A DNA stretch of 64,000 nt from an uncultured Gammaproteobacteria bacterium (GTDB lineage: Bacteria; Patescibacteriota; Microgenomatia; PFEM01; DATLAM01). Below, piece after piece: positions 11,889 to 55,061 of this stretch. The position numbers and the translations under genes were made by a program. How positions within the stretch are numbered: the stretch's first letter is position 1; every line of letters begins with the position of its first letter. The notes under the pieces are model-generated. The model had not been told where the DNA came from and ran no database searches. It saw nothing but the letters and a program-made list of their open reading frames with translations. The stretch covers positions 72,647 through 136,646 of the forward strand of contig CAZMIZ010000002.1 of NCBI GenBank assembly GCA_964566925.1, read 5' to 3'.

Positions 11889-11894
11889 TCGAAG

Positions 11895-37354: not shown

Positions 37355-37427
37355 GGCCCCGTCGTCTAGTGGCCTAGGACATCAGGTTTTCATCCTGAAA
37401 ACAGGGGTTCGATTCCCCTCGGGGTCA
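37355..37427 (+). tRNA. tRNA-Glu (anticodon TTC)
   Basis: GGCCCCGTCGTCTAGTGGCCTAGGACATCAGGTTTTCATCCTGAAAACAGGGGTTCGATTCCCCTCGGGGTCA. Anticodon stem TCAGG/CCTGA encloses loop TTTTCAT. The 3' 46 nt are overlapped on the opposite strand by the end of the recombinase ORF. Confidence 0.8.
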
Positions 37428-39091
37428 CACATTGGGACTAAAGAGGAGCCAGAATCGTCTTTTAGTCCGATAAATGGAGCCAATTTTGGTGTTCCAGAAA
37501 CCAATTCTTCGTAGGTAGGCGGTTTTTCAAAGATAAGTCCGAAGTAATCAGCCCTTTTTAAAGGATTTGAGCCTCCCAGGATCAGTTCCTCCAGGTGTTC
37601 CAGAAAGTAGCCGACAAACTCCATCACTCGCTCCATATTGACGTCTTTTTCTTTATTTTCTACTTTGCTGGCTTGCAGATTTCTAATTTCTTTTTCAGTT
37701 TTGACCAGCTCTTCTTCCATGTATTTAATGGCCGTTGCAGACTCAAGGTATTTAATCTTGTCAACGGTTATCTTGGCTAACGATTTAAGCTCTTCAATCT
37801 TCCGGTCTATCTGTTTATTGTCCTTTTGGCTGCTTTCTATTTTATCCTGCCATAAATCAATTACACACTTTTTCAAGTCCTTGACGTATTTTGGTTTGAT
37901 GCCTAAATTGCTGACAAAACCGGCAATGGTGTCTTCAAATTCCTGCTTAGGCACCCGGAAATAATGGCCCCGCTTATTACAGTGATAGGCAGGATAATAT
38001 TTGCCAAGCCTTCCCCGGGAAGCGCTGCCATATAGAGCTTTCCCGCAAATCGGGCACATAACGTATCTTTTGTAGGGAAATTTGGGATTCCTAACCGATT
38101 TATAAAGCAAATGATCGGGCGGCTTTTTCTTCCAGAATTTTATCTGGCCGTTTTCTTCGGAAATGATAATTTTTCCCTTATTAGCTTTATTAAAAGTCTC
38201 AACCGACACCAAGCCCTTAAACTTGCATTTTATCGGCTTGTCTTTAGTCCAGCTTTCAATATTGATGCCGGCATAAATCGGATTTTGAATATATTTCCAG
38301 AGGGCTTTTAAAGACAACGGGCATTCTCCCGCCTGGCCGATTATTTTTGTCCTGTCTTTAGGGTCGCGACGGTAACGCTTTCTGGTTTTAAAACCCAACT
38401 TGTTTAACTTATCAACGATTTCCTGGTCATTTAAGTTACTGCTTGCCCGAAGCTCAAACATCCTAATAATCCATTTTGATTCCTTCGGGTGGGGTTTTAG
38501 GATGACTCTTTTACCATGGGCGGTTTCCACTTTTTCGTTGACATAGCCAAAAGGAGCTTGTCTGACCCTGTAACCCATTCTAACGTATCTAATTTCGGCA
38601 CCAATCATCCTGGTCATGATATCTCTCATCTCGTCTTTGGCCCGCTCTGCTTCCAAAATTTCCGTTTTTTTAGTAGGGTTGTAAACACTCCAGTCGTATT
38701 TGATGTTTAAATGCTCTAAGGTGTTTATTTCCTGACTACTGATGACCCCATAAATATCAACCAGTTTGACATCATACTTGGTCAGTTGCATTTTAAGATG
38801 GTCATAAAGATAAGAACCGCCTCTGGTAAAGCGGTCAATCGATTTGACAATAAATAGCTGGATGTCGTTTTTTGGCTTTTTGCAGTAATCAATCGCTTCT
38901 TGGACCGGCTGCTCTTCTCTGGAAGCGCTCTCCATGAAGATAAAAAACTTTTTAATCTTGATGTTGTGGTTTTCCGCAAACCTTTCGATTTGCTCTTTCT
39001 GGTCTTCCGGTGAATCGCCTTGAAGCCCTTGTTTTAAGGAAGAAATTCTGATGGCGGCAACGGCATTTTCAGGTTTTGGCAGGTTATTCAT
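37382..39091 (-). CDS. Large serine recombinase (resolvase/invertase N-domain + recombinase domain + zinc ribbon + coiled coil)
   Basis: Catalytic Ser context AAIRISSLKQG. Resolvase core includes SIDRFTRG. Recombinase-domain Zn ribbon is CPICGKALYGSASRGRLGKYYPAYHC. A C-terminal coiled coil is present. The ORF 3' end reads through the antisense of tRNA-Glu. Confidence 0.8.
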   Translation of the reverse strand: MNNLPKPENAVAAIRISSLKQGLQGDSPEDQKEQIERFAENHNIKIKKFFIFMESASREEQPVQEAIDYCKKPKNDIQLFIVKSIDRFTRGGSYLYDHLKMQLTKYDVKLVDIYGVISSQEINTLEHLNIKYDWSVYNPTKKTEILEAERAKDEMRDIMTRMIGAEIRYVRMGYRVRQAPFGYVNEKVETAHGKRVILKPHPKESKWIIRMFELRASSNLNDQEIVDKLNKLGFKTRKRYRRDPKDRTKIIGQAGECPLSLKALWKYIQNPIYAGINIESWTKDKPIKCKFKGLVSVETFNKANKGKIIISEENGQIKFWKKKPPDHLLYKSVRNPKFPYKRYVMCPICGKALYGSASRGRLGKYYPAYHCNKRGHYFRVPKQEFEDTIAGFVSNLGIKPKYVKDLKKCVIDLWQDKIESSQKDNKQIDRKIEELKSLAKITVDKIKYLESATAIKYMEEELVKTEKEIRNLQASKVENKEKDVNMERVMEFVGYFLEHLEELILGGSNPLKRADYFGLIFEKPPTYEELVSGTPKLAPFIGLKDDSGSSLVPMCDPEGNRTPVFRMKT

Positions 39092-39277
39092 TTGACTACT
39101 TCCTCAGTTAATTCCTTATTTTGCTCTTCGACAATTCTGTCGACAAGGAAGTTGGCAAATATCTTCATTCGGTCTTCTTTCTTATCCTTTCTCGTCTTAT
39201 TATGCTTTGAAACCCGCTCCTTATTCATTGATTTTACTCTTAACCTAGCCACAAAACTTGTATCCTTAGTTTATTAA

Positions 39278-39295
39278 CTATCCATATATGGATAG
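39278..39295. promoter_or_regulatory. Perfect 18-bp palindrome CTATCCATATATGGATAG between the divergent recombinase and T4CP genes
   Basis: Exact self-complementarity can be read from the sequence. A further TATCC half-site lies upstream (39262-39266) and a TAGTATACTA palindrome at 39363-39372. Candidate operator or recombinase site. Confidence 0.45.
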
Positions 39296-39412
39296 TATAA
39301 CAAGGGTAAAACAGCTTGTCAAGTAGTAAAGATAAAAAGGTTTCGATTTCTTGTTTTATGTAGTATACTATAGCCAACCTGCCTCATAATCATCCTGCCT
39401 GAAGGGTAAATT

Positions 39413-42073
39413 ATGAGGATTTTTGGTGAATTAGCAAACTTTTTTAGAGACAGCTTTGTTTTTACTTCTTCTTTTCAGACTCTACAAAGCAATCTTTCCC
39501 TTAATAAAACCCTGAAGCTGCTACCTATTTCTTTCTTAGGAGACTTGCTTACTATCCTAGCCTTAGCTTTTACCGCCTTTCTGACTCTCTATGCCTTATT
39601 AAAATTATTGCTGGTAAGAAAAGAGCTAAAGCAGAAGTATGTTTTGTTTGAAATCAGGCCATTGACCGAAACCCTGCAAAGCCCGCTTTCCACTCAGCAA
39701 CTTTTTAATCTTATTCATGGTCTAGCCAGACAGCGATCTCTATTTTATAAACTAATGGATGCCTACAAAAGCTATTCTTTTGAAATTGTTTCCACCAAAA
39801 AAGAGGGTATCAGGTATTTGCTGAGAATCAACTGCGAAGACGCAGAATTGGTTAAAAAGAGTCTCCTTTCCTACCTTCCGGGAATTAGTATCAATCGGGT
39901 CAGCGATTATCTGCCAAAAAAACTTAAAAATGACCGATTTAAAATCGCCGACTTTAAGCAATCAAATCAATTTGCTTATCCTCTGAAAAAACAAAAACTG
40001 CTTAAAGAACACGACCCCATTGCTTATATCACCGGCAGTATGACCAAACTGGACAAAGATGAACTGGTTTCTTTCCAAATCGTTGCTTCTCCGGCTAACA
40101 GGCGCTACTTAAAACAGGCAAGGACAATTACCAATTTGATTGCCGCTAAAAGTGACTTGGTAACCGGCTTAAAAACCTTGAAATTAAATCAGCAATTATT
40201 CAGCTCACTTAAATTATCGCTAAGATTTGTTCTCTATTTATTTCTTATTCCCTTTGGGTTTTTGATATTTTTAATCACCGGAGGCAAAGAAGGTCCTCTC
40301 TTACATCTTGGGATTTTGAATCAGAACAGCAGGAAGAGCGATATTTACCAAAAAGAACTTGAAGAAGTAATAAAAGACAAATTAGATCAACCACTTTTCA
40401 AAACTTCTTTGCGCTTGCTAGTCGTCAGTAAAATCCCGAGAAAACAAAGCGAGCAGATTAAAGGTTTTACCTCCGCCCTTTCCTCGTTTAATAATTCCAA
40501 TTACCAGTCGTTAGTTCCTTTTTTTAAGTTTAAACACGGTTTAATTAAACAAATTAAAGCCTATTTATTTAGAAATAGACTGCTTGGTTTATGGGGAAAG
40601 TCGGTTCTATCGGCCTCAGAGGTGGCCGATATTTATCACCTGCCTTTCACCATCAAAACTAAAACAGAAGATTTAGTCAAACAGCACAGCAAGCAACTAC
40701 CGGCGCCGCTCTCTTTAAAAAGGGCCGATAATTTTGATGTCGTCTTTGCCGAAAACTCCTATGGCGGAACGGTCACTAAAATCGGTTTAACCGAAGACGA
40801 AAGAAGAAGGCATATCTATATCCTCGGGGCCACTGGCACCGGCAAGTCAACTTTGCTTTTGTCAATGATTTTACAGGATATTGAAAACAAAAAAGGGCTA
40901 TGTGTCATTGACCCTCACGGAGATTTAATTGAACAAATTCTGCCCGCTATTCCCCAAGAAAGGGTCAATGATGTCATCTATTTTAATCCGGATGATGTTA
41001 GCCATCCAATTGGTCTTAACCTTTTAGAACTGACACCCGGCTTGAATGAAGATGATGCCCTTCGGGAAAAAGAATTTTTGACGGAAAGTATTATTTCCCT
41101 GTTTCACAAAATCTATTCGGAAAAATATTCCGGGCCGAGGATGGAATATATTTTAAGAAACACCATCCATACTGCTTTTACCACTGAAAACTCGACTTTG
41201 TTTACAGTTTATAAACTGTTGATTAATACTCCTTACCGCAAAAGGGTTGTCAGAGGCTTGGATGATGAAGACTTGAGGGATTTTTGGCGCTATGAATTTG
41301 CCAAAGCCGGCGATTACCAGAAGGTTAAAATGATTTCACCGATTACTAATAAAATCGGCCGCTTCCTTTTTTCGCCAACCGCCAAAAGAATTTTGGAACA
41401 AGAGAAATCCAGCATCAACTTTGATGAGATTTTATCTTCGGGAAAAATCCTGCTCTGCAATGTTTCCAAAGGCAGGATCGGTGAAGACTCTTCCGAAGTC
41501 TTCGGGATCCTAATCATGACCAAAATCCAGCTGGCGGCTTTAAAAAGAGCCAGAACAGCCGATAAAGAGAGGAGAGACTTTTATCTCTACGTTGACGAAT
41601 TTCAGAATTTTGCCACCCCCGCTTTCGCGGAAATCCTGTCGGAAGCCAGAAAATATCGACTGAATGCCATTATGGCTCACCAAACCACTTCCCAGCTTGA
41701 AGATAAATCTTTGGTTAATGTTACTTTGGCTAATACGGGAACGGTAATTTGTTTTCGAACCGCCAACCCAGAAGATGAAAAATTGATTTTACCCCAATTC
41801 TCGCCATACGTCGAAAAAGGCGAAATTGCCAGTCTGCCATCGTTTAATTTTTACATCAAAATCAGCGCCCTTAACCCGGAAGAGCCCTTTTCGGGGATAA
41901 CCACGCCCGTCTTTACCAATTTGGATAATCAAAGAACCAATCAAATCATCGAGCGGTCAAGAAAACTCTACACCTTGCCCTATAAAAAACAAGTGAAGAA
42001 AGATAAAAAAATGAACAAAGAGTTGCAGCCTAAGCTAATTACCAAGACTCAAACTGGAAGCCTCCTGCCCTAA
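39413..42073 (+). CDS. Type IV secretion coupling protein (VirD4/TraG/TraD-like ATPase) with N-terminal TM segment
   Basis: N-terminal hydrophobic LLTILALAFTAFLTLYALLKLLLV. Walker A HIYILGATGTGKSTLL. Walker B-like LYVDEFQNF. The 886-aa length is typical of T4CPs. Confidence 0.55.
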   Translation: MRIFGELANFFRDSFVFTSSFQTLQSNLSLNKTLKLLPISFLGDLLTILALAFTAFLTLYALLKLLLVRKELKQKYVLFEIRPLTETLQSPLSTQQLFNLIHGLARQRSLFYKLMDAYKSYSFEIVSTKKEGIRYLLRINCEDAELVKKSLLSYLPGISINRVSDYLPKKLKNDRFKIADFKQSNQFAYPLKKQKLLKEHDPIAYITGSMTKLDKDELVSFQIVASPANRRYLKQARTITNLIAAKSDLVTGLKTLKLNQQLFSSLKLSLRFVLYLFLIPFGFLIFLITGGKEGPLLHLGILNQNSRKSDIYQKELEEVIKDKLDQPLFKTSLRLLVVSKIPRKQSEQIKGFTSALSSFNNSNYQSLVPFFKFKHGLIKQIKAYLFRNRLLGLWGKSVLSASEVADIYHLPFTIKTKTEDLVKQHSKQLPAPLSLKRADNFDVVFAENSYGGTVTKIGLTEDERRRHIYILGATGTGKSTLLLSMILQDIENKKGLCVIDPHGDLIEQILPAIPQERVNDVIYFNPDDVSHPIGLNLLELTPGLNEDDALREKEFLTESIISLFHKIYSEKYSGPRMEYILRNTIHTAFTTENSTLFTVYKLLINTPYRKRVVRGLDDEDLRDFWRYEFAKAGDYQKVKMISPITNKIGRFLFSPTAKRILEQEKSSINFDEILSSGKILLCNVSKGRIGEDSSEVFGILIMTKIQLAALKRARTADKERRDFYLYVDEFQNFATPAFAEILSEARKYRLNAIMAHQTTSQLEDKSLVNVTLANTGTVICFRTANPEDEKLILPQFSPYVEKGEIASLPSFNFYIKISALNPEEPFSGITTPVFTNLDNQRTNQIIERSRKLYTLPYKKQVKKDKKMNKELQPKLITKTQTGSLLP

Positions 42074-42218
42074 AAATTGTCCTCGCGCTTTGGGACAAAA
42101 AATTGCTGAATTTAGCCTTAAAAATGACGATAATCTCTACCCCTTATCCCTTATAAATAAGGAGGAGAAACGTAAACCAGTCAAGAGTTTGGGAAAATAA
42201 ACCAACACAAACGACCTT

Positions 42219-42998
42219 ATGAATCAAACAAAAAAGCCAACCTCAAAGCAAATTGAAATCCTTATTCTTTTATATCGCTTCCGCTTTCTCAATCGCCGCC
42301 ATCTCCAAAAATTTCTCAACCACCAAGACCATCGACGAATCAACGCCTGGCTGAAAGATCTCACCGAAAAAAAATATCTTGGTCGAATCTACTCCCGAAA
42401 ATTTGGAGAAAACACCCAGCCAGCCATTTACTTCCTGAAATCAAAAGCGGCTGGTGTTTTGAGAAAAAAACCAGAGATTAACCAATCCCTGCTTAACCGA
42501 ATCTATCGGGAAAATCTACGCTCAAGAAAATTCATTAACCACTGCCTTTTCTTGGCTGATATCTATTTTCATCTGAACCAGCTTTGTTCAGAAGACAAAG
42601 CCAAGCTTCAGTTTTTCCATCGGACCGATTTAAGCAGCCATGATTATCTACCCGAACCCCTGCCTGATTTGTATTTTGTCATCCAGGAACCGAGGGGGGA
42701 AGCCAAAAGGTATTTCTTGGAAATGTTCGTCAGGAAGACTCCCCGTTATGCCTTGCGGCATCGTCTTTTTAGATTTTTTAATTATTATCAATCCAATCTC
42801 TGGGAAAAAACCACCCGCCATCCCTTCCCGACCATTCTTTTGGTCTGTTCCGACAGGTACATGCAGGCCTATTTGAATAAATTCATCAAAGAAACCCAGG
42901 AAGACGAAGAAAATTACGAAATTCAATTCTTTTTAACCACCATAGGAAAAATAAGGAAAGAGGGAGTAGGCAAGAAGGTCTGGAAAGCAATCGTTTAA
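42219..42998 (+). CDS. Replication-relaxation (Replic_Relax, PF13814-like) family protein
   Basis: N-terminus TSKQIEILILLYRFRFLNRRHLQKFL matches the Replic_Relax wHTH signature (L-T-x-x-x-x-x-I-L-x-x-L-x-x-x-R-x-L-x-x-x-x-L-x-x-L). Confidence 0.5.
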   Translation: MNQTKKPTSKQIEILILLYRFRFLNRRHLQKFLNHQDHRRINAWLKDLTEKKYLGRIYSRKFGENTQPAIYFLKSKAAGVLRKKPEINQSLLNRIYRENLRSRKFINHCLFLADIYFHLNQLCSEDKAKLQFFHRTDLSSHDYLPEPLPDLYFVIQEPRGEAKRYFLEMFVRKTPRYALRHRLFRFFNYYQSNLWEKTTRHPFPTILLVCSDRYMQAYLNKFIKETQEDEENYEIQFFLTTIGKIRKEGVGKKVWKAIV

Positions 42999-43025
42999 CC
43001 ATCAGGCAAAAAGATAGAAAGCGCC

Positions 43026-44060
43026 TTATTTTTCTTTTAACTGGTAGTAACTGGCTTTCCCTTTTCCCTTTCTTTCGATCAACCCCAAGTCAATCAGTTT
43101 TTTGAAATCCAGGTTTCTGGTCGCCCTGGCCCGGTCAGTCAGTCCGGCATAATCGCGATCGGAGATATAACCCTTTTGGCTGATGAATTCTAAAATCCGT
43201 TGATGGTAAGGCTTCAGTTCTGTTTTGGGGCTGACCGAAGTTTCGGGCAGGATTTTTTTCACCCGCAAGAGTTCGTCGATGATCCCGTCCGTAAAGTATT
43301 CCAGCCAGTCGGTAAAATCAATGGCCTTAACCAGGTCATAATAATTGCCCAGCACCCCAATCTTCTTAAAGTAGTTGGTTACGTTTCGGTTATAGTAATT
43401 CTCGAAACTGAAAAGGTTAAAAGTATCAAGGCCCATGTCTGCTAAAAGAACTTTGGTGGCCAACCTGGCCGTCCGGCCGTTGCCGTCCATAAAGGGATGA
43501 ATAATCACCAACTGCTTATGAAAGATACCGGCGATGATCAGGGGGTCAACCAAACCTTTATTTTTGACCACAAATTTAATCAGTCCGTCCAGCAATTGGT
43601 CAAGGTCCTGGTGATCGGGTGGCCAATAGACGGTTTTACCGGTCCGGGGATCATTGACAAAAACAGGTTCCCGTCTTAATTTTCCCAGTTGATCGCGGGG
43701 AGCTAACTGATTAAGGATTTGCCGGTGAACAGACAAAATCAGCTGAAGATCAAAGGCAATCCGGCCGCTTTTCAGTTTTTTATTTAATTCCTTCAGAGCT
43801 TGATTGTAATTAATGATCTCCTGCTCGCTCCTTCTTAAATTTTTAGGCTGGGTTTTAAGAATCTGCTTGACGTCGGTCAGCGGCAAGGGGTTGCCTTCAA
43901 TGCTGGTTGAAGCAAAGGCAGAAGTTTCCCGAGCCTTTCTTTCCAGCTCATAAAGAACCACCTTCGGAAATCTTCTATTATTCAGGTCCAAAACAATCGA
44001 ATTTATCTGTTTGATCTTGGCCAGAAGCCTGTCGGTAATGGTATATTGAGGCTCAAACAT
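43026..44060 (-). CDS. Fic/Doc family protein (AMPylator-type)
   Basis: Canonical Fic motif HPFMDGNGRTARL (HPFx[D/E]GNGR) at about residue 190. Confidence 0.8.
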   Translation of the reverse strand: MFEPQYTITDRLLAKIKQINSIVLDLNNRRFPKVVLYELERKARETSAFASTSIEGNPLPLTDVKQILKTQPKNLRRSEQEIINYNQALKELNKKLKSGRIAFDLQLILSVHRQILNQLAPRDQLGKLRREPVFVNDPRTGKTVYWPPDHQDLDQLLDGLIKFVVKNKGLVDPLIIAGIFHKQLVIIHPFMDGNGRTARLATKVLLADMGLDTFNLFSFENYYNRNVTNYFKKIGVLGNYYDLVKAIDFTDWLEYFTDGIIDELLRVKKILPETSVSPKTELKPYHQRILEFISQKGYISDRDYAGLTDRARATRNLDFKKLIDLGLIERKGKGKASYYQLKEK

Positions 44061-44786: not shown

Positions 44787-44809
44787 AGCCCTATTTATTG
44801 GGCTTTTTT
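44787..44809 (+). terminator. Rho-independent terminator-like hairpin (AGCCC-tatttatt-GGGCT + TTTTT)
   Basis: 5-bp GC-rich stem, 8-nt loop and T5 tract on the plus strand, directly upstream of the TATAAT at 44822-44827. Confidence 0.35.
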
Positions 44810-44833
44810 GATTCTTCCTGCTATAATCCGCAC

Positions 44834-45667
44834 ATGCGTGGTTTTTTAAAGTCAATTTTGCATTCAGGCCCCACCAAAGAACATGGACAGAGATTGGCTG
44901 TTACTCAACCTTTTGATGTCGAAGTCGAGAGATTAGGTTATGAGGAGACACTCCTTCTTGCAAGACACCTGATGACTTTAGCCCGCCGACGCCGTTGCGC
45001 CACCAACCATTTAGGCGAATACGCAACAAGAGAAAGAGGCTTAAACTGGCAATTAGAAGGCTGGTATTACATAAACGGATTCACTGATGCCGATGATGCC
45101 CATAGCAAGATGCTAGATGATCTAGAAGCAATCGCTCAAGACCCAGATCAAACAAGCAGAACTATTAAAGAAAGAGTCATTTTAACTAATTATTTTTCAG
45201 AGAGAGGCGAATTGGAGGACTGTTATTCTTATGGAGAAATCAATCCATTTATTTTTGAAACCGAAGGCAGGATTGTTGGTTTACGGGATACGCTATTCGA
45301 CCAAATGGATTTTCCTTCGAGGGTCTCTACAATAGTTTCATTTGATCCAGAAATTAGAGGCCACAAACATCAAATCCGATATTTCCGTTCATTACTTGTA
45401 GCTTATTCTCTAGCTCATATTTTGAACGATAGAGGAATTGAAAGCGATCCAATAACAATTTTTCTTCAGGATGAGCGTGCTTTAGCAAATGGATGGCTAG
45501 CTGTTGCCCAACGGATGAAAAGTTTTTCCATTACACCAGATGGATTACCTCCTGATGAGAACTTTCTTTACGACCATGGCAAGGTTTCTGAGTCCGCAAT
45601 GCTTTTTAATGGTTATTGTCATTTATCTGAAGCAGTTCTTGGATTAAGAAGTTGGAGTGATTTCTGA
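44834..45667 (+). CDS. Hypothetical protein (277 aa from the ATG at 44834); apparently leaderless
   Basis: A TATAAT box at 44822-44827 lies 6 nt before the ATG with no SD. The track ORF starts at an upstream TTG (44798). No family recognised. Confidence 0.4.
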   Translation: MRGFLKSILHSGPTKEHGQRLAVTQPFDVEVERLGYEETLLLARHLMTLARRRRCATNHLGEYATRERGLNWQLEGWYYINGFTDADDAHSKMLDDLEAIAQDPDQTSRTIKERVILTNYFSERGELEDCYSYGEINPFIFETEGRIVGLRDTLFDQMDFPSRVSTIVSFDPEIRGHKHQIRYFRSLLVAYSLAHILNDRGIESDPITIFLQDERALANGWLAVAQRMKSFSITPDGLPPDENFLYDHGKVSESAMLFNGYCHLSEAVLGLRSWSDF

Positions 45668-45803: not shown

Positions 45804-46340
45804 TTAAAATCCGAATCCTAAAGTTATACTGCCTCCAGCTTTAGTACCTCTGAAATCAATATTCGCCATGATTCCTTCCCGCTTCATGTCTATATATCGA
45901 AATTCAGCAATATTGGGCGTTGGGTTAACGATTGGTTGATCTGCTAAAATTTGCGTTAAAGCAATCATAAAATCCATCCATTCACTGTCACTTTTACAAA
46001 ACTTACTGGGCAAATCGTACTTTTCTAAAAGTTTTATTAGTTCTTCTCTGAATTCGGGCAACAGAAGAAAATCAATATTTCCACCTTTGGGGTATATATC
46101 TATTGATTTTTCAATCTTGGTCATAATTGTTTTCATTGCAGGAGTAATATGGTCTTTTCTAGTATGAACGGCCCAATCAGCGTGGAAGCGAACTAAAAAA
46201 TAAGTAACTGACTTGTTTTGCTCTTTTTCTCTATCGAGAAGTTTTCTTAACTCAACTAACAAATAGACCACCTCGCATTCTTCTTTCATTGGATGTTCGG
46301 TAAGAAATTTTTTTAACTTTTCAATTATTTGTACTTTCAT
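45804..46340 (-). CDS. Hypothetical protein (178 aa), last gene of the Shedu-like operon
   Basis: Clean ORF, AT-rich, no motif. Confidence 0.4.
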   Translation of the reverse strand: MKVQIIEKLKKFLTEHPMKEECEVVYLLVELRKLLDREKEQNKSVTYFLVRFHADWAVHTRKDHITPAMKTIMTKIEKSIDIYPKGGNIDFLLLPEFREELIKLLEKYDLPSKFCKSDSEWMDFMIALTQILADQPIVNPTPNIAEFRYIDMKREGIMANIDFRGTKAGGSITLGFGF

Positions 46341-46352
46341 GATTAAGACTTT

Positions 46353-47162
46353 TTATCGCTTCAGATATCTATTAAACCAATTCTCGATTAGAAGATAAAC
46401 GCCTCGTCTTTTAGGTTTGAGATCATGCCCAGCTCCTTTTTCAATATCTGTTTCTTTACCTCCTTTTTTGGCATAGTAAAAGGACCACATTTCTGATATA
46501 GGAACCTTATCGTCTTTCTCGCCGTGAATAAACAATATTGGGCAAGAGATTTTCTTCATAGATGCCAATAAATCATATTGCTCTAAATCTTGCCAGAAAA
46601 TTGGCTTTACTCTGGTAATATTTCCACCTGATCGTTTTCGTGACGATATACCATTGGGGTTGAAATCCTCCTTAAATAGTTCTTTCATCAGTTCATGGGG
46701 ATGTGCGATTGAACCCATTAAAATAATGGCGTTAACATTTGGTTCTAGAGCAACGGTGACAGAAGTTCCAAAAGATTGGGCCAGTATGCCTATTTTATTT
46801 TTGTCGACTTTAGGATGCTTTCTAACAAAATCTAACATGATTCCGAGGTCTGACACGAGCTTTGATAATGAAGTTTCGCTGTAATCACCTTCACTATCTC
46901 CACATCCAGAAAAGTCAAATTTGAATACAAGAAACCCGGCAGATGATAGTTTGAGGGCAATATCAGTAAACATCCCCCCTTCGGTTCTCTCAACGCCAAA
47001 ACCGTGCACCAAAAGAACAGCTGGGTTTTTTTCTTGAGATCTCTCAGGAAAAGTTATATCACCATGTAAATATTCTCCTTTTTTGTTGTTTAATCCTACC
47101 AATTCTTCTTTTATTTCCAGTCTTTGATTATTCATATTTATTTTCGAAATTGGCTCGGCCAC
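46353..47162 (-). CDS. Alpha/beta-hydrolase fold protein
   Basis: HGFG oxyanion region LLVHGFGVERTEG. Nucleophile elbow GILAQSFGTSV (G-x-S-x-G). C-terminal His in KGAGHDL. Confidence 0.6.
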   Translation of the reverse strand: MAEPISKINMNNQRLEIKEELVGLNNKKGEYLHGDITFPERSQEKNPAVLLVHGFGVERTEGGMFTDIALKLSSAGFLVFKFDFSGCGDSEGDYSETSLSKLVSDLGIMLDFVRKHPKVDKNKIGILAQSFGTSVTVALEPNVNAIILMGSIAHPHELMKELFKEDFNPNGISSRKRSGGNITRVKPIFWQDLEQYDLLASMKKISCPILFIHGEKDDKVPISEMWSFYYAKKGGKETDIEKGAGHDLKPKRRGVYLLIENWFNRYLKR

Positions 47163-47494
47163 TGCCGATTCTGAAAAGCCCGGATGCGGTGTGTTAATCT
47201 CTCTCTTTCCTTTTTGAGATATTCAACTTGATTAGAAGTAAAACGTCCTGGGAATTTTTCACTATACGCAAGTTCCAGGTCTATTAAAATTCTACTCTCT
47301 CTATCAAAAGCCAAAGCCATCTTAAAAATGTCTGTTGGTTTAATTGGCTCTCCCGGGATCAACTCCTTGGCGTTAAACTTTTCTGACCGCTGATGAGCAA
47401 CCCGGAAATCTTTTAATATATTTTTGATTTTCTGATCAATTTTGTCGTTCACTTTCTGGTTTAGGAATGATGTTTTTAATATATTCATCGGCAA
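47138..47494 (-). CDS. Hypothetical protein (118 aa)
   Basis: Overlaps the upstream gene by 59 nt and the downstream gene by 25 nt, so it is likely co-transcribed. No motif. Confidence 0.35.
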   Translation of the reverse strand: MPMNILKTSFLNQKVNDKIDQKIKNILKDFRVAHQRSEKFNAKELIPGEPIKPTDIFKMALAFDRESRILIDLELAYSEKFPGRFTSNQVEYLKKERERLTHRIRAFQNRQWPSQFRK

Positions 47495-48830
47495 TATTAA
47501 TTATCTCGTCAAATGTCAAAATCTCAATGCTGTGTAAACTGTTTCTTAGCTTAGTAAAGTCTCTTTTAAGTTTTTCATTTTCTCCTATATGTGTTGTAAG
47601 CCTTCTTTCGGACGAAATTACAATAATTCCCCTTGGGTGATAGAGATTTTCTTCGTCTACGAAATTCGTGATTTTTTGCTGATCTTCTGGATTTTTAAAG
47701 CGTTCTTGTACAATTGCATCCATGTAATTTGTTGTCTGAACGATTGCCTTGCTCATCTCTGGCGAAAAATAGAAGTTCTGATGGCTGTTATCCCACATTA
47801 ACGCATTTTTAAGGTGTGTTTTAATTTCAATAACATCTAGGCCATTATAATGATTTATACCAATAAAGTCTGGATATTTCTTATCGCCTACCACGTCTTT
47901 TAATTCAACTTTGGGGAAGATTTTTTTATAAGTAAATATTAAATAAAGAAGATACTTTTCAAAATATTTTTGCCATACACTTTCTAATTGCCCGGCAGAT
48001 TCTATTTCCAAAGCCTGCGTTACTTGACGCCCAGATTTTGTTGATAAATTTGTGCTACCCAAAGACAATATTTTTCGCCCCAACGCGATAATATCTCGCA
48101 GCCTTTCTTTTATAAAATAATCATTGAGCACCTGTAAAAAACTATCTGATAAAACTTCATTTTTTAGAAGCAAGCGTAATAGATCTTCTACAGATGTCAG
48201 ATCGTCCCGATCAAGATATTTGGTAAAATCGCTCTTTGCTTTTTTTGTTTTAAGATAAAGACGGTCTACTAGGAATTTAAACTCGCCGGCCTCAATGTAT
48301 GTTGTTCTTCTTCTGACGTTTTTGTTATATTTACGAGATTTAATATTTGAAAGATAATTCTCTGTAGAGTTTCTATAAGATAATCCTTTTTCAAAAACGT
48401 TTTTAGCATCAGTCATGATGTCTGAAAATAAATTTAAGGGAATTATCAAGGTATCTTTATAAAATCTCATTGCTTTTGAGTTTTTGCTCAGTTTGGTTCT
48501 CTTAACACCTTTGTTTAACGGATTGACTATTTTTTTAAACTGCCTTTCATTTACCAACTTATAACTTCCTGTACGTCGGAACTGTAGAAATTTTCTAATA
48601 TCAAAGTCTTTTGGAAAAACTATCTCGGAAAATCTTTCTCTCTGGCCATATTCTCTTTTCTCAGGATTGTAATACCAAAAACTAAGGTGGAATTCGCCGC
48701 GCTTGATGCTTAGGATTTCTCCCTTAGGGCACTTAAGTTGTTGTCTCCCTTCATTTAAAACTAAATCTGGCCAGCGTGCACCAATTAAAGTATCTGAAAT
48801 ATATTTTGCTAATGTTTTCCTTCTTGGCAT
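47436..48830 (-). CDS. Putative PD-(D/E)xK nuclease, Shedu (DUF4263)-like C-terminal domain
   Basis: C-terminal KYPDFIGINHYNGLDVIEIKTHLK gives D...(D)-x-I-E-I-K, i.e. a PD-(D/E)xK core. It is followed by RGIIVISSERR. The N-terminal 250 aa are basic with no motif. The family call rests on motif memory only. Confidence 0.35.
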   Translation of the reverse strand: MPRRKTLAKYISDTLIGARWPDLVLNEGRQQLKCPKGEILSIKRGEFHLSFWYYNPEKREYGQRERFSEIVFPKDFDIRKFLQFRRTGSYKLVNERQFKKIVNPLNKGVKRTKLSKNSKAMRFYKDTLIIPLNLFSDIMTDAKNVFEKGLSYRNSTENYLSNIKSRKYNKNVRRRTTYIEAGEFKFLVDRLYLKTKKAKSDFTKYLDRDDLTSVEDLLRLLLKNEVLSDSFLQVLNDYFIKERLRDIIALGRKILSLGSTNLSTKSGRQVTQALEIESAGQLESVWQKYFEKYLLYLIFTYKKIFPKVELKDVVGDKKYPDFIGINHYNGLDVIEIKTHLKNALMWDNSHQNFYFSPEMSKAIVQTTNYMDAIVQERFKNPEDQQKITNFVDEENLYHPRGIIVISSERRLTTHIGENEKLKRDFTKLRNSLHSIEILTFDEIINIADEYIKNIIPKPESERQN

Positions 48831-48976
48831 ATTTTTAATAAGACCACGGGTTGTAAATTGGCTCTAATTGTATTATATCTGTCTTGTGGTTACTTATCAT
48901 TTTATTATCTTCATTAAGTCTTTAAATTCTTGAGTAGCTTTATCGGACAAGGTCATGTTTGTTTTTCTTCTTGCAA

Positions 48977-49909
48977 TCAAATATTCTTTGGATAACTTTG
49001 GGAGAATTTGGATAAAAGTCTGCTGATTAAGTCATTCTTCAAATCATTTTCTCGATAGTATTTATCCGCCTCGACCATTTGTTCATAAGCTGAATCCTTG
49101 TATTCCAGCATTTCATTCTCCGGATCATCAAGAATGTTTTTGTGCCAGTTGGTAACCACCTCATTAAAATCAATCTCCGAGCCTCTCTCGCCAATAGCGT
49201 CAAGTTGCTGGCCAACAGCTTCGTCGTAAGCTCCGGAGGCATAGTTCTCCGGATCGGTGATAATCTCGTAGAAGTCGATTATATTATTAGAGTAGAGGAT
49301 AACATAATCTCTTAATCCTTCATCTATTATCTTGTCTTGATAGAGACCCTCTGCCTGGGCGATGATGCTTGGGGCAACGTCATAAGCGTCGGTCATGTCT
49401 TGGAAGCGCTCCTCATCGCTTTTCTCCTCGCCCAAGCCGGCAAACTTGGCATTGGCGGTATCAAGCTGCTGGACCAAGCGAAAACCCTGATGCTCCTTTT
49501 TCTTTAATTCAATGAAAACTGCCAGCGATTTTTGATAGTTCTCAAAAGCAGGTTTTTTCAATTCCTGATATTTTTTGTATCTGGCCGGCAAAAAGGGGAT
49601 CTTATCCTGCCGGTTAACGAAAACCTGATAAGAATCAACTAATTTTTGGGCAAACTTCAAACCTTCCTCAATATCTTCCGGGATTTTATTCATCTTCTCC
49701 TGGTCAGAGATGAAAGCGCTTTCCTCTCCGGTCCTGATGGCAATCAAGTAGTCAATTTGATCCCGGACTTCTTCGGTGAGCAGATAGTGGGCCCTTGCCC
49801 GCCACTCAAACTCGTTGTAAACAAAAGCAGGGATGTTTTGATTGAAGATAACTACTAAAGCAACGACTAAAACCGCCAGACCCAGAAGAATCTTCTTTAG
49901 AATTTTCAC
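48977..49909 (-). CDS. N-terminally membrane-anchored hypothetical protein (310 aa), last gene of the Type IIG-led operon
   Basis: TM LLGLAVLVVALVVIF. Acidic C-terminal region. Start overlaps the stop of the Cas4-like gene by 4 nt. Confidence 0.4.
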   Translation of the reverse strand: MKILKKILLGLAVLVVALVVIFNQNIPAFVYNEFEWRARAHYLLTEEVRDQIDYLIAIRTGEESAFISDQEKMNKIPEDIEEGLKFAQKLVDSYQVFVNRQDKIPFLPARYKKYQELKKPAFENYQKSLAVFIELKKKEHQGFRLVQQLDTANAKFAGLGEEKSDEERFQDMTDAYDVAPSIIAQAEGLYQDKIIDEGLRDYVILYSNNIIDFYEIITDPENYASGAYDEAVGQQLDAIGERGSEIDFNEVVTNWHKNILDDPENEMLEYKDSAYEQMVEADKYYRENDLKNDLISRLLSKFSQSYPKNI

Positions 49910-50664
49910 CTTTCTTCTTTGCTAATCAATCTTCTATAAGCACAATATTCACAGTTCTCACTGGCAGAGGGGATTTTGTCGGAATCCAGACATTTCTTCA
50001 TGGCAAAAATAGCTGGCTCTACCCAGGAATCATCACCATTGTGAGCAATAATTTGCAACTCAAACTCTAACCGGGCGTCAAACTTGGGTCTATTTTTACC
50101 GGCATTGGCAAAAATAAAATAGCCGGTGTTGGAGACTTTAAAACCGCTCTGCTTGAAAATCCATTGATAAACCTCCATCTGTTTTTTATAGTTTTGTTTG
50201 TATTCATCCTCAAGCGAAATCTCCTGGGAAGTGCTAGTGGCTTTGTAGTCAACAATCAACAACTCTTCTTTTTTGTTTATCCAGAGATCATCCACGGCTC
50301 CAAAGACTAAAAAATTAGTCCCTTCATGAAGATACTGCTTGCCAACAAAATTATTCCGCCACTCCTCAATATCCGGATGAGAAAAGGGCACGGCGTCAAT
50401 CTGGTACTGCTTCATTAATTGATGCTGTTCACCATTTTTACGAAGAAGATCAAACTCGTTTTTCAAAAGCTGGTCCACGGCTGAGTTTAAAGCCCATCCT
50501 GGCATGCTGGGACGGCCCAAGCCTAAACGGCGGTCAAGATAAAAACAACGCGGACATTCCAAGAATAAATCAATCTTGCTCCGACTGATTTTAAAAGGCA
50601 CCTTCTGTCCAGGTTGATAAAGACCTCTCTGGCGTTTTTGGTATTTGTTCATATTAAGATACAA
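49906..50664 (-). CDS. Cas4/RecB-like PD-(D/E)xK nuclease with Fe-S cysteine cluster (PDDEXK_1-like)
   Basis: N-terminal CPRCFY. Motif II GAVDDLW. Motif III LIVDYKAT (D-x-K). QxxxY appears in KQMEVYQ. C-terminal C-x12-C-x2-C (CLDSDKIPSASENCEYC). Confidence 0.55.
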   Translation of the reverse strand: MYLNMNKYQKRQRGLYQPGQKVPFKISRSKIDLFLECPRCFYLDRRLGLGRPSMPGWALNSAVDQLLKNEFDLLRKNGEQHQLMKQYQIDAVPFSHPDIEEWRNNFVGKQYLHEGTNFLVFGAVDDLWINKKEELLIVDYKATSTSQEISLEDEYKQNYKKQMEVYQWIFKQSGFKVSNTGYFIFANAGKNRPKFDARLEFELQIIAHNGDDSWVEPAIFAMKKCLDSDKIPSASENCEYCAYRRLISKEER

Positions 50665-50673: not shown

Positions 50674-53600
50674 TTACTGTCTCAACCATTCTTGTTTATC
50701 GTCTAAGAAATTAGGATTACGTTCAATAAGTTTATTAAAAATTCTTGCCACTTGTTTGTTGCTCTTAGGTAGCTTTTTGAGGGGACCTATCGCGTCTGCG
50801 AGATCATTTGCTATTAAAACTTCTATTGGATAATCAGCTAAAAACTCAAACCATTTTAAATATTCCGTGGTTCCTTTGTGCTTAGCAACCGCAAGTAAAA
50901 TCTTTCCGTTATAGAAAAACGGCCACCAGTAAACGTTGGGAACATTTTCTTTGTCTTTTGCCGCTTCAATTAAAAACGGCTTTTCAACTTCAAGGCATTT
51001 CGTCCAAAGTTTAAAACAATCTTCAAAATAAGAATCGATGTAATCTTCAATAAATCTGTAAATATTCTCAAAAACCCGGTGCTCGTATTTATTTATTAAA
51101 ATTTTAAAGTAAGAAACCGCTAAGGCAACCGCTTCATCAACTGTCATCTGACTTTTTTCTTTAGGAGTCTTGCTTATTTCGTCCGTTAACCTATTGAATT
51201 GCCAAGACAAATCTGACTTGACTTCAGACGAACCATTTTTCAGCAAATCCACCAAGAGGGCTTTGAATGGTTTACTATCAAACTTTGTGATATCACCCCA
51301 AGGCCAGTTTTTAAAAGACTTACTCCTAAATTCGGCAAAAAATATGTATAAAGGCGATGCTTCCTGCATCACTTCATCAAAGCCAGTGTTTTTGAAAGTT
51401 TTAAGGACAAGCATTGCCCGTTTTTCATCCAGATTTCTCATGTATGTAAAAACCGTCGCCAAGTGCTTCATTACTACCTTAAGTTTGTGATTTTCTTTAT
51501 CCTTAAGCATAGCAAAAGCGATGCCTTCAATTTGTTCAGCTACTCTCATTGGCAAAAACCTTTCCTTGCTGTCTTCTGATAAAAACGTATGTCTATTTTT
51601 TACGAGTTCTATAAGAGGAATGCATGCCTGCACGCGTACATAGTAATTTGGGTCTTTTGATAGCTGTTTAACTAGAGGTAGTATTTCGGCAATATAATCT
51701 CGGCCATAGCGGATACAGAATTTTTGTAAAACCCAGGCGCAATAACCACGAACCGTGTTAAGTGTCGGATTATCATCACCCTCTATGACTTTTTGATGAA
51801 AATTAAAATCACCTTTTGGATCATCTGGATAGTTTTTTAATATCGGGTCACTGTCGTTGATAAATATCTTGACTAGCCAAAGTGCTTCATCAAAGTAGCG
51901 GAGTTTGGCCAATTTTTCGGCAAATTGTACAAGAGACTCACGAGAGTATCTGTGGCTGAAACGCCGCTCTATCCTTTTGATATCACCTAATCCTTCTAGT
52001 GTTGGTTTCAAGAACTCCTTATATACCTTAAGTAGAATATCCTTTTTCTCATCAGGGATGTTATAAAGCCCGCCACTAATTATTATTTGTTGATTGACAG
52101 TAAGTGTTTTCGCTTTATCTATCACTTTTAGTAATCCAATACCGACCGCAGGCTTTTTTTCAATAACCCTGGCAACTGCCTTGGCCACATCATAAGCGTC
52201 AAAGGAGACCAATTTGTTTTTAAAATAATCTGTTGACAGATAAGACTCCAACAGCCCAACAGCCTTATCAAAATTATTTTCTAAAAGCAGTAAAATCCCA
52301 TCTGTTGGGCCATAAGAACCAATTACATGACGGGTATTATATTTTGGGTTTTGAATCCAACTCATGATTACATCTCCTGCTTTTTTGGCAAGTTTAGACG
52401 AAGGTTTTGAAGCAATATTAAAAACTATTTGTTCTACAAATACATTTGTTGGCAGATTATCGAATTCCTTAAGACTTGCATCCACTAATTTCCATTTCTG
52501 TTCATCTGTAAATTCATCGTTGTTTATTCCTTGGAAAATTAAATCATTTTTCCAGGGGATACCTTTACGCATCTTCACAAAAGTCTTCAAAATTTCGAAA
52601 ATTTCTTCACTGAACTCACCGCCTTTATATTCCTCGAGGAGAATAGGTAGTGTGGCGCGGTTCAAGAAATCAGGGTTTTTTCTACTCACGTCTTTAAGAG
52701 AAAGGCATTTCTTTACAATAAAATCCAGCCCCTTCTCTTTATCTGCCTCGTATAGTTTTTTTAGCGATGGGGTTAATATCTGGGTTACGAAGTAGCGGTC
52801 AGTAATTGAGAATAAACTTCCTGATTGTGAAATTCCGCTACCCATATGCTCCCAACCTTCAAACTTAAGTTTTTTACCGAATTTTCTGTAGAATTTGTCA
52901 TATTGTTCAACGCACCTTTTAGTAAACCAGGGTATTCGTATTTCGGGATTACTTGAAACATACTTTCCTAAGATTTTAAATATGCTGGGTGGGGTGTAAT
53001 GCCAAAATCTACCGTCATCCGCAACCAAATTAAAATTGCTAACGATATAGTCGATAACATCATGTTTAAGTCTTTTATTTTTGCTTTTGTTGTAGAGTTC
53101 CTCCAGTAATTCGGCTGTCTTTTCCCTTTCCCATGTATCATCTCTTCTTCTTTTTACGTAAAGAAATTTGTCAATGGAATGTTTATAGACTTGCTTTATT
53201 ACCTGGAATACTTGCCCTTCGAGCGCCCTGTTTAATTCCAATATTTTCCCACTCAATTTCACTATGTCGTATTTAATAAACTCTTCCCTAAAATAGTTGG
53301 TTGCTTCGCCGATTATACTAAGAATAAAGTTAAGCGCGAATTCTTGATTTTCCTTATTATGGATATTATTTTCAAATATTTTAAAAAGCTCTATGGAGAA
53401 AGCACTTTGGTAGGTAGCCTTCCAAAGATTTAGCCAATCAGATAATTTTAAATTTTTTTCGCCTTCCAATTTTTGTAGAGCGAAGTGGTGAATTGAAGGA
53501 TTTGCATAAAGCTTAACCAGTTCGTTATTAATATTTAGCTTTTTACTCCTTGATTTTATCGATTTGATTATTTTTCTAACTTCTTTCTCTTCGATTTGCT

Positions 53601-54258
53601 TAACTTTCTCGTAGTCATAGCCATCATCTTCTAATATTTGGGCTTTTTTACTTTCAAGTAATTTCAAAAAGTCATCTCTATTGAGAGTTTCACCTTTTTG
53701 AGATCCCTGATAGACCCTGTCTTCGACCAGGCTTTTGGTAATTTCTTGTAACCGATGTTCAGGTACCCAGAAAGCCTCAGGATAACTCAAAACTTTCGCC
53801 ATGAGAATTTCAACCGCTTGGCGGTTTATATCCTGGCTTACTTCCCAAAATCTAAGTTGAGGTAGTAACTTTAGGTGTTTATCTTCAAATTTATGTTTTT
53901 TACTTTTAAGTTTCTTTTTAATATCTTTTTCAAAATATTTGAAATTTTCAATCAATCCTTTTGCCTCTTTGTTTACCTTTTTACAGACTATTAGAATTTC
54001 ATCTTGATCTGCCACTTGGGCGTGTTTAATCACTTTATCAAGAATCTTTCTTATATCTGCTAGGTTTATATTTCCCGCTTTTGACTCGCAGATTATTTTT
54101 CTTCCGTCTTCAAAAACAAGGTGAAAATCCTCAAGCTTTTTGCCCTCAAAACCTATATACCTGAAATCTTTACGAGTAACGTACTGTAGAAACAATGACA
54201 TAGCCGCCCAATTTTGAGCATTTATACCTTTTTGTAGCCGTTGTCCTTGAGTTGTCAT
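50674..54258 (-). CDS. Giant hypothetical protein (1194 aa) with N-terminal restriction-endonuclease-like motif and long helical-repeat body
   Basis: The N-terminal 70 aa contain LEDFHLVFEDGRKIICESKAG, fitting D-x13-E-x-K. No Walker A, HKD or phosphatase motif was found in the rest, which is mostly predicted alpha-repeat. Start overlaps the AlbA_2 gene stop by 4 nt. Confidence 0.45.
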   Translation of the reverse strand: MTTQGQRLQKGINAQNWAAMSLFLQYVTRKDFRYIGFEGKKLEDFHLVFEDGRKIICESKAGNINLADIRKILDKVIKHAQVADQDEILIVCKKVNKEAKGLIENFKYFEKDIKKKLKSKKHKFEDKHLKLLPQLRFWEVSQDINRQAVEILMAKVLSYPEAFWVPEHRLQEITKSLVEDRVYQGSQKGETLNRDDFLKLLESKKAQILEDDGYDYEKVKQIEEKEVRKIIKSIKSRSKKLNINNELVKLYANPSIHHFALQKLEGEKNLKLSDWLNLWKATYQSAFSIELFKIFENNIHNKENQEFALNFILSIIGEATNYFREEFIKYDIVKLSGKILELNRALEGQVFQVIKQVYKHSIDKFLYVKRRRDDTWEREKTAELLEELYNKSKNKRLKHDVIDYIVSNFNLVADDGRFWHYTPPSIFKILGKYVSSNPEIRIPWFTKRCVEQYDKFYRKFGKKLKFEGWEHMGSGISQSGSLFSITDRYFVTQILTPSLKKLYEADKEKGLDFIVKKCLSLKDVSRKNPDFLNRATLPILLEEYKGGEFSEEIFEILKTFVKMRKGIPWKNDLIFQGINNDEFTDEQKWKLVDASLKEFDNLPTNVFVEQIVFNIASKPSSKLAKKAGDVIMSWIQNPKYNTRHVIGSYGPTDGILLLLENNFDKAVGLLESYLSTDYFKNKLVSFDAYDVAKAVARVIEKKPAVGIGLLKVIDKAKTLTVNQQIIISGGLYNIPDEKKDILLKVYKEFLKPTLEGLGDIKRIERRFSHRYSRESLVQFAEKLAKLRYFDEALWLVKIFINDSDPILKNYPDDPKGDFNFHQKVIEGDDNPTLNTVRGYCAWVLQKFCIRYGRDYIAEILPLVKQLSKDPNYYVRVQACIPLIELVKNRHTFLSEDSKERFLPMRVAEQIEGIAFAMLKDKENHKLKVVMKHLATVFTYMRNLDEKRAMLVLKTFKNTGFDEVMQEASPLYIFFAEFRSKSFKNWPWGDITKFDSKPFKALLVDLLKNGSSEVKSDLSWQFNRLTDEISKTPKEKSQMTVDEAVALAVSYFKILINKYEHRVFENIYRFIEDYIDSYFEDCFKLWTKCLEVEKPFLIEAAKDKENVPNVYWWPFFYNGKILLAVAKHKGTTEYLKWFEFLADYPIEVLIANDLADAIGPLKKLPKSNKQVARIFNKLIERNPNFLDDKQEWLRQ

Positions 54259-55061
54259 AAGTTATGAATATCTTTAAAATTTTTAATAAAATCCTCGACT
54301 AGTGTTTCAAGATCATTGTGTAAACTATTTAGTCTTTCGTTATCGGTCGCACTAACAGATTCTCCGTAAGTCGCTCCTGCGCTAAAAATATTTCTAATAG
54401 CCTCATATAAACGGATAACTTTTCTCAATTTATCAAGTAGGTCGTTGAAGTCTTCACTATCCGCAAGTCTGTTTTCCAGATAACCCCTCAGCTGCAGAAA
54501 ATACATAAAATCGATGGCGTCTGGATTTAACTTGCATTGTTTTATCTTGTCTAACTCGTTCTCTAATTGATAGATGTGACTGGGGGAAAATTTATCTACT
54601 AAAAACAATTTTCTTAAAATGCTACCATCTTCTATTGGATCGCAAGTACCATTTCCTCTAACATAAACCTTCTTATCAGTTATATGCGGTCTATCAAAAT
54701 AAAGGGAAGGGTATATATACAAAAGATAAACATATTTGCTTTTTTGGGGCAACTTAATTTCATTTATATCCCAACTTTTGATAGGGATTGGGGGACCTAT
54801 ACCATTTTTAATTTTTCTGTTTACTTTTGTTTTCAGTTCTGTATCCCTATCTATACCTACTATTTTTATGTCATTATTTATTCCGTGCAAAATAAATCCA
54901 CCATTAGTGTTTGCAAAAGAACAAAATATCCTCCGTATTCTCTCCGTGTCTCCCAAAGAAATTCCTTTGAAGTCGTGATACCAGCCCTCCAAAACATTTG
55001 CACCATTTACAAATGATTTGATTTCACTAAACCCCCACGTTTTAACCTGGTCTATATTCAT
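54255..55061 (-). CDS. AlbA_2 (Schlafen-like, PF04326-type) domain protein
   Basis: RIRRIFCSFANTNGGFILHGINNDIKIVGI matches the AlbA_2 core a-f-A-N-t-x-G-G-x-l-x-x-G-V-x-D-x-x-x-i-v-G. 268 aa. Confidence 0.5.
   Translation of the reverse strand: MNIDQVKTWGFSEIKSFVNGANVLEGWYHDFKGISLGDTERIRRIFCSFANTNGGFILHGINNDIKIVGIDRDTELKTKVNRKIKNGIGPPIPIKSWDINEIKLPQKSKYVYLLYIYPSLYFDRPHITDKKVYVRGNGTCDPIEDGSILRKLFLVDKFSPSHIYQLENELDKIKQCKLNPDAIDFMYFLQLRGYLENRLADSEDFNDLLDKLRKVIRLYEAIRNIFSAGATYGESVSATDNERLNSLHNDLETLVEDFIKNFKDIHNL

Follow-up and report, generated by a model that had tools for sequence, protein, structure and literature searches.

A Shedu nuclease from a Patescibacteria genome, encoded within a mosaic defence island beside a type IV secretion cluster

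Shedu systems have been described as consisting of one gene whose neighbours vary, with approximately 79 kinds of N-terminal sensor domain represented among them, and a survey of their neighbourhoods lists 602 cases embedded among restriction-modification (RM) genes and 1,110 associated with transposable elements (Gu et al., bioRxiv 10.1101/2023.08.10.552793). The Escherichia coli enzyme, SduA, is a tetramer whose nuclease becomes toxic when the N-domain is removed (Loeff et al., bioRxiv 10.1101/2023.08.10.552762). That of Bacillus cereus is described as inactive until a conformational change completes its active site, and KELShedu (KELA and KELB) pairs a protein of 12.6 kDa with a DUF4263 nuclease (bioRxiv 10.1101/2025.09.13.674623). 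Here we examine a 64,000-nucleotide (nt) stretch of DNA from a Patescibacteria genome (assembly GCA_964566925.1, contig CAZMIZ010000002.1, positions 72,647 to 136,646; hereafter the window), in which the 464-amino-acid (aa) product of a minus-strand gene at 47436-48830 is a genuine Shedu nuclease, referred to below as SduA. An initial annotation, made from the letters alone, had read this gene as the first of a coupled operon that continues with a 118-aa protein, an alpha/beta hydrolase and a 178-aa protein. All four minus-strand open reading frames (ORFs) are present where it placed them, but we find that the supposed 'operon' of four genes arose by chance neighbourhood within a mosaic defence island, and consider it likely that SduA is a self-sufficient single-gene Shedu, with the three genes behind it not being components of the system.

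The resemblance of the C-terminal domain to DUF4263/Shedu, proposed in that annotation, is borne out by profile and structure searches alike. The Pfam family SduA_C (PF14082) scores 70.4 bits where its gathering score is 27 (E 2.5e-19), with residues 283-443 (47502-47984, minus strand, as the Pfam envelope) covering profile positions 4-158 of 159, and 13 PADLOC SduA models match the same protein with E values down to 1.8e-17. In a Foldseek comparison of the predicted structure with the PDB, ranks 1-8 are all occupied by Shedu chains (8ps5, 8ti8, 8ti9), at probability 1.00 and E values from 4.4e-10 to 4e-4. The motif quoted in the annotation, YPDFIGINHYNGLDVIEIK...RGIIVISSERR, is found in the protein, and the catalytic core of the PD-(D/E)xK nuclease domain reads P320-D321 ... 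E335-I-K337 in the window. The catalytic codons lie at 47868-47870 (D321), 47826-47828 (E335) and 47820-47822 (K337), thus within 47820-47870 on the minus strand, and neither the three residues nor Q365 vary in the two family alignments, which hold 16 and 69 sequences. As searches against PDB chains at the sequence level, with the single sequence or with family profiles, returned no match, it takes the Pfam profile and the fold to reveal kinship to the solved Shedu enzymes.

An AlphaFold2 model of SduA, built from the 69-sequence alignment, has a mean predicted local distance difference test score (pLDDT) of 82.9, and predicts an architecture of Type 1, namely an N-domain, a helical linker and a nuclease, for a protein whose structure is unsolved. 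Its N-domain, which spans residues 1-131 (48438-48830, minus strand), is a mixed beta/alpha domain modelled at pLDDT 95-97, and is a putative sensor or DNA-end clamp. It is joined to the nuclease in the model by a long helix and a helical middle region (residues 132-297; 47940-48437, minus strand), with helices at 132-168, 183-191, 208-223, 229-257 and 282-297, and the modelled nuclease domain spans residues 300-454. That the N-terminal half is novel, as had been suggested, holds insofar as it has no family match in Pfam, NCBIfam or PHROGs, but the half is no peculiarity of this protein, since more than 100 relatives share it over its whole length.

The top structural match, aligned over the whole chain, is E. 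coli SduA (8ps5; E 4.4e-10), in which an N-domain, an alpha-helical linker and a C-terminal DUF4263 PD-(D/E)xK domain follow in the same order as in our model, and which is likewise a single-gene system located in defence islands. The conserved tryptophan near the N-terminus of the window protein, W20, which is kept in at least 90% of the 69 sequences, may correspond to the conserved Trp25 of the E. coli enzyme. The two proteins are nevertheless only 13% identical, with no match at the sequence level; the template modelling (TM) score is low (0.34-0.38, root-mean-square deviation 15.5), so that any equivalence of their N-domains is tentative, the helical middle of the window protein is approximately 100 residues longer than the E. 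coli linker (residues 146-194), and the hosts differ, that of the window protein belonging to the Patescibacteria. B. cereus Shedu (Type 1A; 8ti8 and 8ti9) shares the Type 1 plan of a regulatory N-terminal region before the nuclease, and its DUF4263 core matches at E values of 1.4e-5 to 4e-4 and TMt of 0.5-0.6, the best being the nuclease domain of 8ti9 (E 1.4e-5, TMt 0.60). This match is confined to the nuclease domain, however, and no sPC4/Whirly N-domain was detected in the window protein.

By analogy with the E. coli and B. cereus enzymes, SduA most likely tetramerises through its DUF4263 domains, and its N-domain (residues 1-131) would keep the D321/E335/K337 site in check. On encountering some mark of incoming foreign DNA, most probably a double-stranded end that is free, the enzyme would be released to nick or cut that DNA. 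The sensing of DNA ends and an anti-phage activity are, like the tetramer, inferred.

The enzyme belongs to a well-populated family. A homologue search with SduA recovered 284 proteins, more than 100 of which are full length (approximately 460 aa) and 45-68% identical. The named members of this clade are Patescibacteria (Levyibacteriota, Saccharibacteria, Colwellbacteria, Doudnabacteria and others), with outliers in the Flavobacteriaceae, in a spirochaete and in a metagenome-assembled genome of the Campylobacterota.

The four genes are tightly spaced and run in the same direction, and the overlap between SduA and the gene that follows it is the only true one among them. The small gene was annotated in its longest-ORF form (118 aa; 47138-47494, minus strand), which would overlap SduA by 59 nt. 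That overlap is ruled out, since 20 of 20 aligned relatives open with methionine where the window has V15, which sets the start at the GTG at 47452 and gives a protein of 104 aa (47138-47452, minus strand), here termed g104. The SduA stop codon (TGA, 47438-47436) is therefore overlapped by 17 nt. Likewise, the 25-nt overlap reported between the small gene and the hydrolase disappears if the latter is not taken in its longest form (269 aa; 46353-47162, minus strand) but starts at the ATG equivalent to 47135, as it does in its closest relative (77% identity) and in the public gene call. The resulting 260-aa alpha/beta serine hydrolase (46353-47135, minus strand) is separated from the TAA stop of g104 by a 2-nt spacer. 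Both overlaps were hence artefacts of choosing the longest possible ORF, whereas the 12-nt gap between the hydrolase and the last gene (46340/46353) and the 146-nt gap upstream of SduA (48830/48977) were given correctly. The last gene, g178, encodes 178 aa (45804-46340, minus strand) and belongs to a conserved Patescibacteria family. The G+C content of the four genes is 0.33 (SduA), 0.39 (g104), 0.37 (hydrolase) and 0.34 (g178), compared with 0.42 in the first 36 kb of the window. A promoter-like site (ATGATA-17-TATAAT; 10 of 12 consensus matches) lies in the 146-nt gap at 48872-48900 on the minus strand, but it is weak in that the regional count of such sites does not exceed that of shuffled sequence, and promoters of Patescibacteria may differ from the consensus. 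A scan for promoters and terminators detected no terminator-like site between the four genes, with counts equal to those of shuffles.

The proposed coupling was examined through conservation of gene order. We fetched 36 genome loci carrying relatives of SduA, 30 of which include at least 4 kb of sequence downstream of the nuclease gene, and searched them with every neighbouring protein of the window. The hydrolase and g178 occur in none of the 36, and reverse checks starting from each of these two genes found no Shedu near their relatives, so that the claim of a coupled operon of Shedu, hydrolase and two ORFans does not survive. Absence of synteny in any relative had been named beforehand as the observation that would count against that claim, and it applies to the hydrolase and g178, whereas g104 is partly syntenic: it is the only recurrent same-operon neighbour of SduA across the 36 loci, and is confined to the closest relatives, of which, counting the window, 4-5 out of 7 carry it. 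Neither small protein is an ORFan, with 22-45 clusters in the family of the 118-aa ORF and approximately 85 in that of g178.

The hydrolase is an independent gene, encoding a serine hydrolase unrelated to Shedu. It matches Hydrolase_4 (E 1.6e-14) and, among other Pfam families, Abhydrolase_1, DLH and Peptidase_S9, and has an intact triad, with Ser121 in the nucleophile elbow AQSFG, Asp208/209 and His237; all matches in NCBIfam fall far below the cut-offs, with no equivalog near threshold. A metagenome scan returned a single close relative, on contig L055 (77% identity), whose neighbours are def (for peptide deformylase), another hydrolase gene, a xer recombinase gene and trpS, on a contig without SduA, g104 or g178. 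On this contig (4-3453), def and the second alpha/beta hydrolase directly precede the hydrolase relative, and 2 kb upstream of the latter ends a gene for a type IV secretion system (T4SS) coupling protein, 40% identical to that of the window.

The history of g104 is more closely bound up with that of SduA. An exhaustive profile search of 1.84 billion proteins yielded 45 representatives of its family, nearly all of approximately 100 aa, and searches of Pfam, PADLOC, PHROGs, NCBIfam and PDB profiles returned no match that would indicate a function. A homologue follows and overlaps SduA in three of the fetched loci, by 17 nt in L002 and L004, as in the window, and by 8 nt in L003. In L005 g104 has lost its start codon and acquired a premature stop beside an intact SduA, and no copy accompanies SduA in L006, in L007 or in any relative at or below 50% identity. 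Elsewhere the gene is solitary (L038-L040) or lies within prophage-like modules that lack SduA_C (L041-L044). In L041 (4600-6321) the order is a LexA gene, a 93-aa gene, a 152-aa gene ending in a Zn ribbon, and g104, with no SduA; the backbone recurs in L002 (8639-11681) and L003 (8714-11690), where SduA occupies precisely the junction of the Zn-ribbon gene and g104, and one protein (P0235) is a fusion of Zn ribbon and g104. A LexA-like repressor, small genes, a Zn ribbon and g104 thus constitute a recurring mobile-element module, and g104 looks like a backbone gene of mobile elements that often, but not always, follows Shedu. It would have derived from a LexA-controlled operon of this kind, upstream of whose last gene Shedu inserted, the pair then moving together, and the 17-nt overlap would have welded g104 physically to SduA. 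One further copy, 80% identical to that of the window, follows a different SduA_C protein in L045. This locus (5014-7435) encodes a shorter Shedu (323 aa; SduA_C E 2.8e-8) whose N-terminus resembles a coiled coil, and after its g104 a 357-aa protein with a weak nucleoside 2-deoxyribosyltransferase-like match.

Upstream of SduA, the 146-nt gap separates it from an operon that does contain a Type IIG RM enzyme, and the description of the region as a defence-island-like stretch beside a Type IIG operon is upheld. All genes of the operon lie on the minus strand. It begins with the Type IIG enzyme (g904, 55058-57772; Eco57I E 1.4e-40, PADLOC REase_MTase_IIG E 2.3e-118), a Schlafen/AlbA_2 protein (g268, 54255-55061; SLFN_AlbA_2 E 1.3e-16) and a 1194-aa protein without a family match (g1194, 50674-54258), these three genes being tightly coupled through 4-nt overlaps. 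They are followed by a Cas4-like PD-(D/E)xK protein (g252, 49906-50664; PDDEXK_1 E 8.6e-13) and, as the last gene upstream of SduA, by a membrane-anchored protein of no family (g310, within 48977-50664). Locus L058 (1-5004) is collinear with the first three genes, its 1228-aa protein being 44% identical to g1194 over the full length, and there g178 comes next, overlapping the stop of the 1228-aa gene by 4 nt. Because g178 directly follows the g1194 homologue in L058, the SduA block of the window lies between two genes that are adjacent elsewhere. Judged by this gene order (g904, g268, g1194, [g252, g310, SduA, g104, hydrolase], g178), the window corresponds to the L058 operon with a block of approximately 4.3 kb between g1194 and g178. 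A search for insertion scars around the block (46.35-50.66 kb) found only short repeats at chance level. Schlafen/AlbA_2 and Cas4-like PD-(D/E)xK genes are found upstream of SduA in L004 (7886-9998) as well as in the window, and in L004 the g252 homologue directly abuts SduA.

The family of g178 comprises approximately 85 clusters, mostly 60-83% identical, and all of its named members are Patescibacteria. In eight of eight distinct contexts g178 closes a cluster of co-directional genes or stands one place before its end, and the gene before it differs each time. It is preceded by the hydrolase in the window; by the operon of Type IIG enzyme, Schlafen/AlbA_2 protein and 1228-aa protein in L058; by an AriA/PtuA-like ABC ATPase in L049, where genes for EcoRI methylase and GmrSD adjoin the ATPase; by a complete SIR2-HerA system downstream of hsdM-hsdS in L062; by a 472-aa protein without known function in L046; by a 215-aa protein after an FtsK-like gene in L052; by an 84-aa protein, with a convergent Mrr-like gene, in L053; and by glycosyltransferases, across a gap of 216 nt, in L063. 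The gene stands no more than 27 nt behind the SIR2-HerA system and the AriA-like ATPase. Its AlphaFold2 model is confident (pLDDT 88, predicted TM score 0.83) and has no significant fold match in the PDB or BFVD; Pfam, PADLOC, PHROGs, NCBIfam and PDB profile searches gave no match that would indicate a function. Convergent on g178 is a 289-aa plus-strand ORF (44798-45667), which is matched by nothing in Pfam, PADLOC, PHROGs or NCBIfam; among the fetched loci, the window's own contig (L001) is the only one to contain a relative.

Because no partner gene is conserved across the 36 loci, we favour the interpretation that SduA acts as a Shedu on its own. Several observations weigh against it. In four genomes or more the small gene comes after SduA and overlaps it in a conserved manner, and it also follows the second, unrelated SduA_C protein of L045, and its linkage to SduA_C exceeds what is expected of a random neighbour; KELShedu provides a precedent for a small partner of a DUF4263 nuclease (bioRxiv 10.1101/2025.09.13.674623); the synteny sample, comprising 36 genomes and a few metagenome contigs, is non-exhaustive; and, given that the four genes are tightly packed, co-directional and without a detectable terminator, they may well be co-transcribed in this organism. 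That same packing on one strand without a terminator-like site, together with the lower G+C content, is what speaks for a new composite defence system built of all four genes, a nuclease, a serine hydrolase and two small proteins. We regard such a system as highly improbable, as the arrangement is seen in no relative of SduA, the hydrolase or g178, each gene has its own distinct neighbours elsewhere, and Shedu is documented as a single gene. A two-gene variant of Shedu, in which g104 is translationally coupled to SduA and serves, for example, as an adaptor that binds DNA or as a restraint on nuclease activity, in the manner of KELA, has more to recommend it. The overlap is conserved, two further pairs are suggested by contigs of matching length (P0135/P0022 and P0136/P0016), a close copy of g104 accompanies a different SduA_C protein, and the pair sits behind differing upstream genes in the window, in L004 and in L002/L003, as a cassette might. 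KELShedu, too, encodes a DUF4263 nuclease beside a protein of approximately 12 kDa with almost no intergenic space, as do SduA and g104. However, KELA is required for defence and its gene precedes that of the nuclease, whereas g104 lies downstream, is dispensable for the retention of SduA (L005-L007) and occurs free of any SduA_C nuclease (L038-L044); its one fusion partner is a Zn ribbon and no nuclease, and any homology to KELA is hypothetical. As g104 is not a consistently co-encoded small partner of the KELShedu kind, we consider the two-gene variant quite unlikely. In a weaker version of the idea of a shared component, g104 may be a dedicated partner that docks onto different DUF4263 nucleases.

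A separate proposal concerns g178 only, and is compatible with SduA being a single-gene Shedu. Here the Type IIG-Schlafen-g1194 operon, like other defence operons, would have in g178 its functional final member or an accessory common to them, and the SduA block would have been inserted later. The 4-nt coupling of g178 to the g1194 homologue in L058, its position close behind SIR2-HerA and the AriA-like ATPase, its strong conservation despite unrelated neighbours, and its confident predicted fold without known match all point in this direction. Against this, some of the contexts (L063, L046 and L052) contain no recognisable defence genes, consisting of glycosyltransferases or of partners without known function, SIR2-HerA is complete without a third gene, and only eight contexts have been sampled; moreover, homology starts exactly at the g178 ATG without insertion scars, such that the gene could instead mark the edge of a recombination hotspot. 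On balance we hold the accessory role to be possible but doubtful. The broader notion that g178 represents an unseen fold distributed Patescibacteria-wide, acting as the shared last component of defence operons that are otherwise unrelated (so far Type IIG-Schlafen-g1194, SIR2-HerA and a PARIS-like ATPase), where it might serve as a common regulator, a chaperone or a relay of the trigger, strikes us as unlikely; if it were true, the position of g178 behind the Shedu block would be the result of cargo inserting into such an operon.

The surroundings of the wider SduA clade resemble those surveyed by Gu et al. (bioRxiv 10.1101/2023.08.10.552793), with RM systems, recombinases and prophage-like modules nearby. 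Among the 36 loci, large serine recombinases occur near SduA in 7, ParB-methylase genes in 6 and LexA-like repressors in 6, and Type I RM genes are also found. The recombinase is convergent and immediately downstream of SduA in six (L008, L009, L010, L013, L028, L030), and upstream on the same strand in L033, pointing to carriage on integrative elements. In L019, L033 and L034 SduA is flanked by hsdM and hsdS, and in L036 it comes immediately behind hsdM, at which point the sequence stops. The proteins of L033, L034 and L036 are distant relatives of 441-456 aa, 31-32% identical over the nuclease domain only, and that of L019 is a relative of the full-length type (44% identity). The window conforms to this pattern in that SduA follows g310, the last gene of an operon starting with a Type IIG enzyme, and it departs from the surveyed cases in nothing essential; its surroundings are a Patescibacteria-specific mix beside a chromosomal T4SS cluster. 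A family of approximately 550-aa proteins (starting MRYLNNEQHYIDRYDLHTIEEC...), whose sole match is a weak IS1595-type Zn ribbon, occurs within 3.5 kb of SduA in 7 of the 36 loci (L002, at 12536-14206, L004, L012, L016, L017, L035 and L037), and is not found in the window. Relatives of SduA and g104 were found in neither IMG/VR nor PLSDB, and those of g178 in neither IMG/VR nor INPHARED; a phage or plasmid origin of the three genes was rejected on the strength of these empty searches.

On a larger scale, the window contains a tRNA-Glu abutting a large serine recombinase (37.4-39.1 kb), followed by genes for a T4SS coupling protein, a Rep-like protein and a Fic protein (within 37355-44060), by the low-G+C defence stretch (45.8-57.8 kb), and by a T4SS block (57927-63010) in which two pilin genes are accompanied by genes resembling TrbL, PrgI and VirB4 and by one for an M23 peptidase. 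This last block is homologous to genes that adjoin SduA in L003 (12.0-17.2 kb) and L007 (11.7-16.7 kb). The span of 37-63 kb may be an integrative element or the core T4SS of Patescibacteria with a hotspot at its flank; a firm assignment to an integrative conjugative element is discouraged by the T4SS of this phylum being usually a chromosomal core system without a relaxase. Because T4SS clusters in this group are reported as near-ubiquitous, chromosomal and mostly relaxase-less, the region is better described as a variable defence island flanking a T4SS cluster than as a proven conjugative element. Distant from this region, a dense minus-strand array of 12 tRNA genes occupies 10962-11978, with a local G+C spike of 0.58.

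Together these findings illustrate that genes packed closely within a defence island need not constitute a single system. They also bring to light a sizeable and little-described clade of Shedu with an E. coli-like layout in the Patescibacteria, a group that the main survey of Shedu does not list, and this clade has spread to the Bacteroidota, Spirochaetota and Campylobacterota. The locus shows defence cargo being shuffled beside the chromosomal T4SS cluster of the phylum. The operon of Type IIG enzyme, Schlafen protein and approximately 1200-aa protein may be an undescribed multi-gene defence system, and this operon and the g178 family, with its confident new fold and its place at the end of several defence operons, are perhaps worth more than the Shedu itself.

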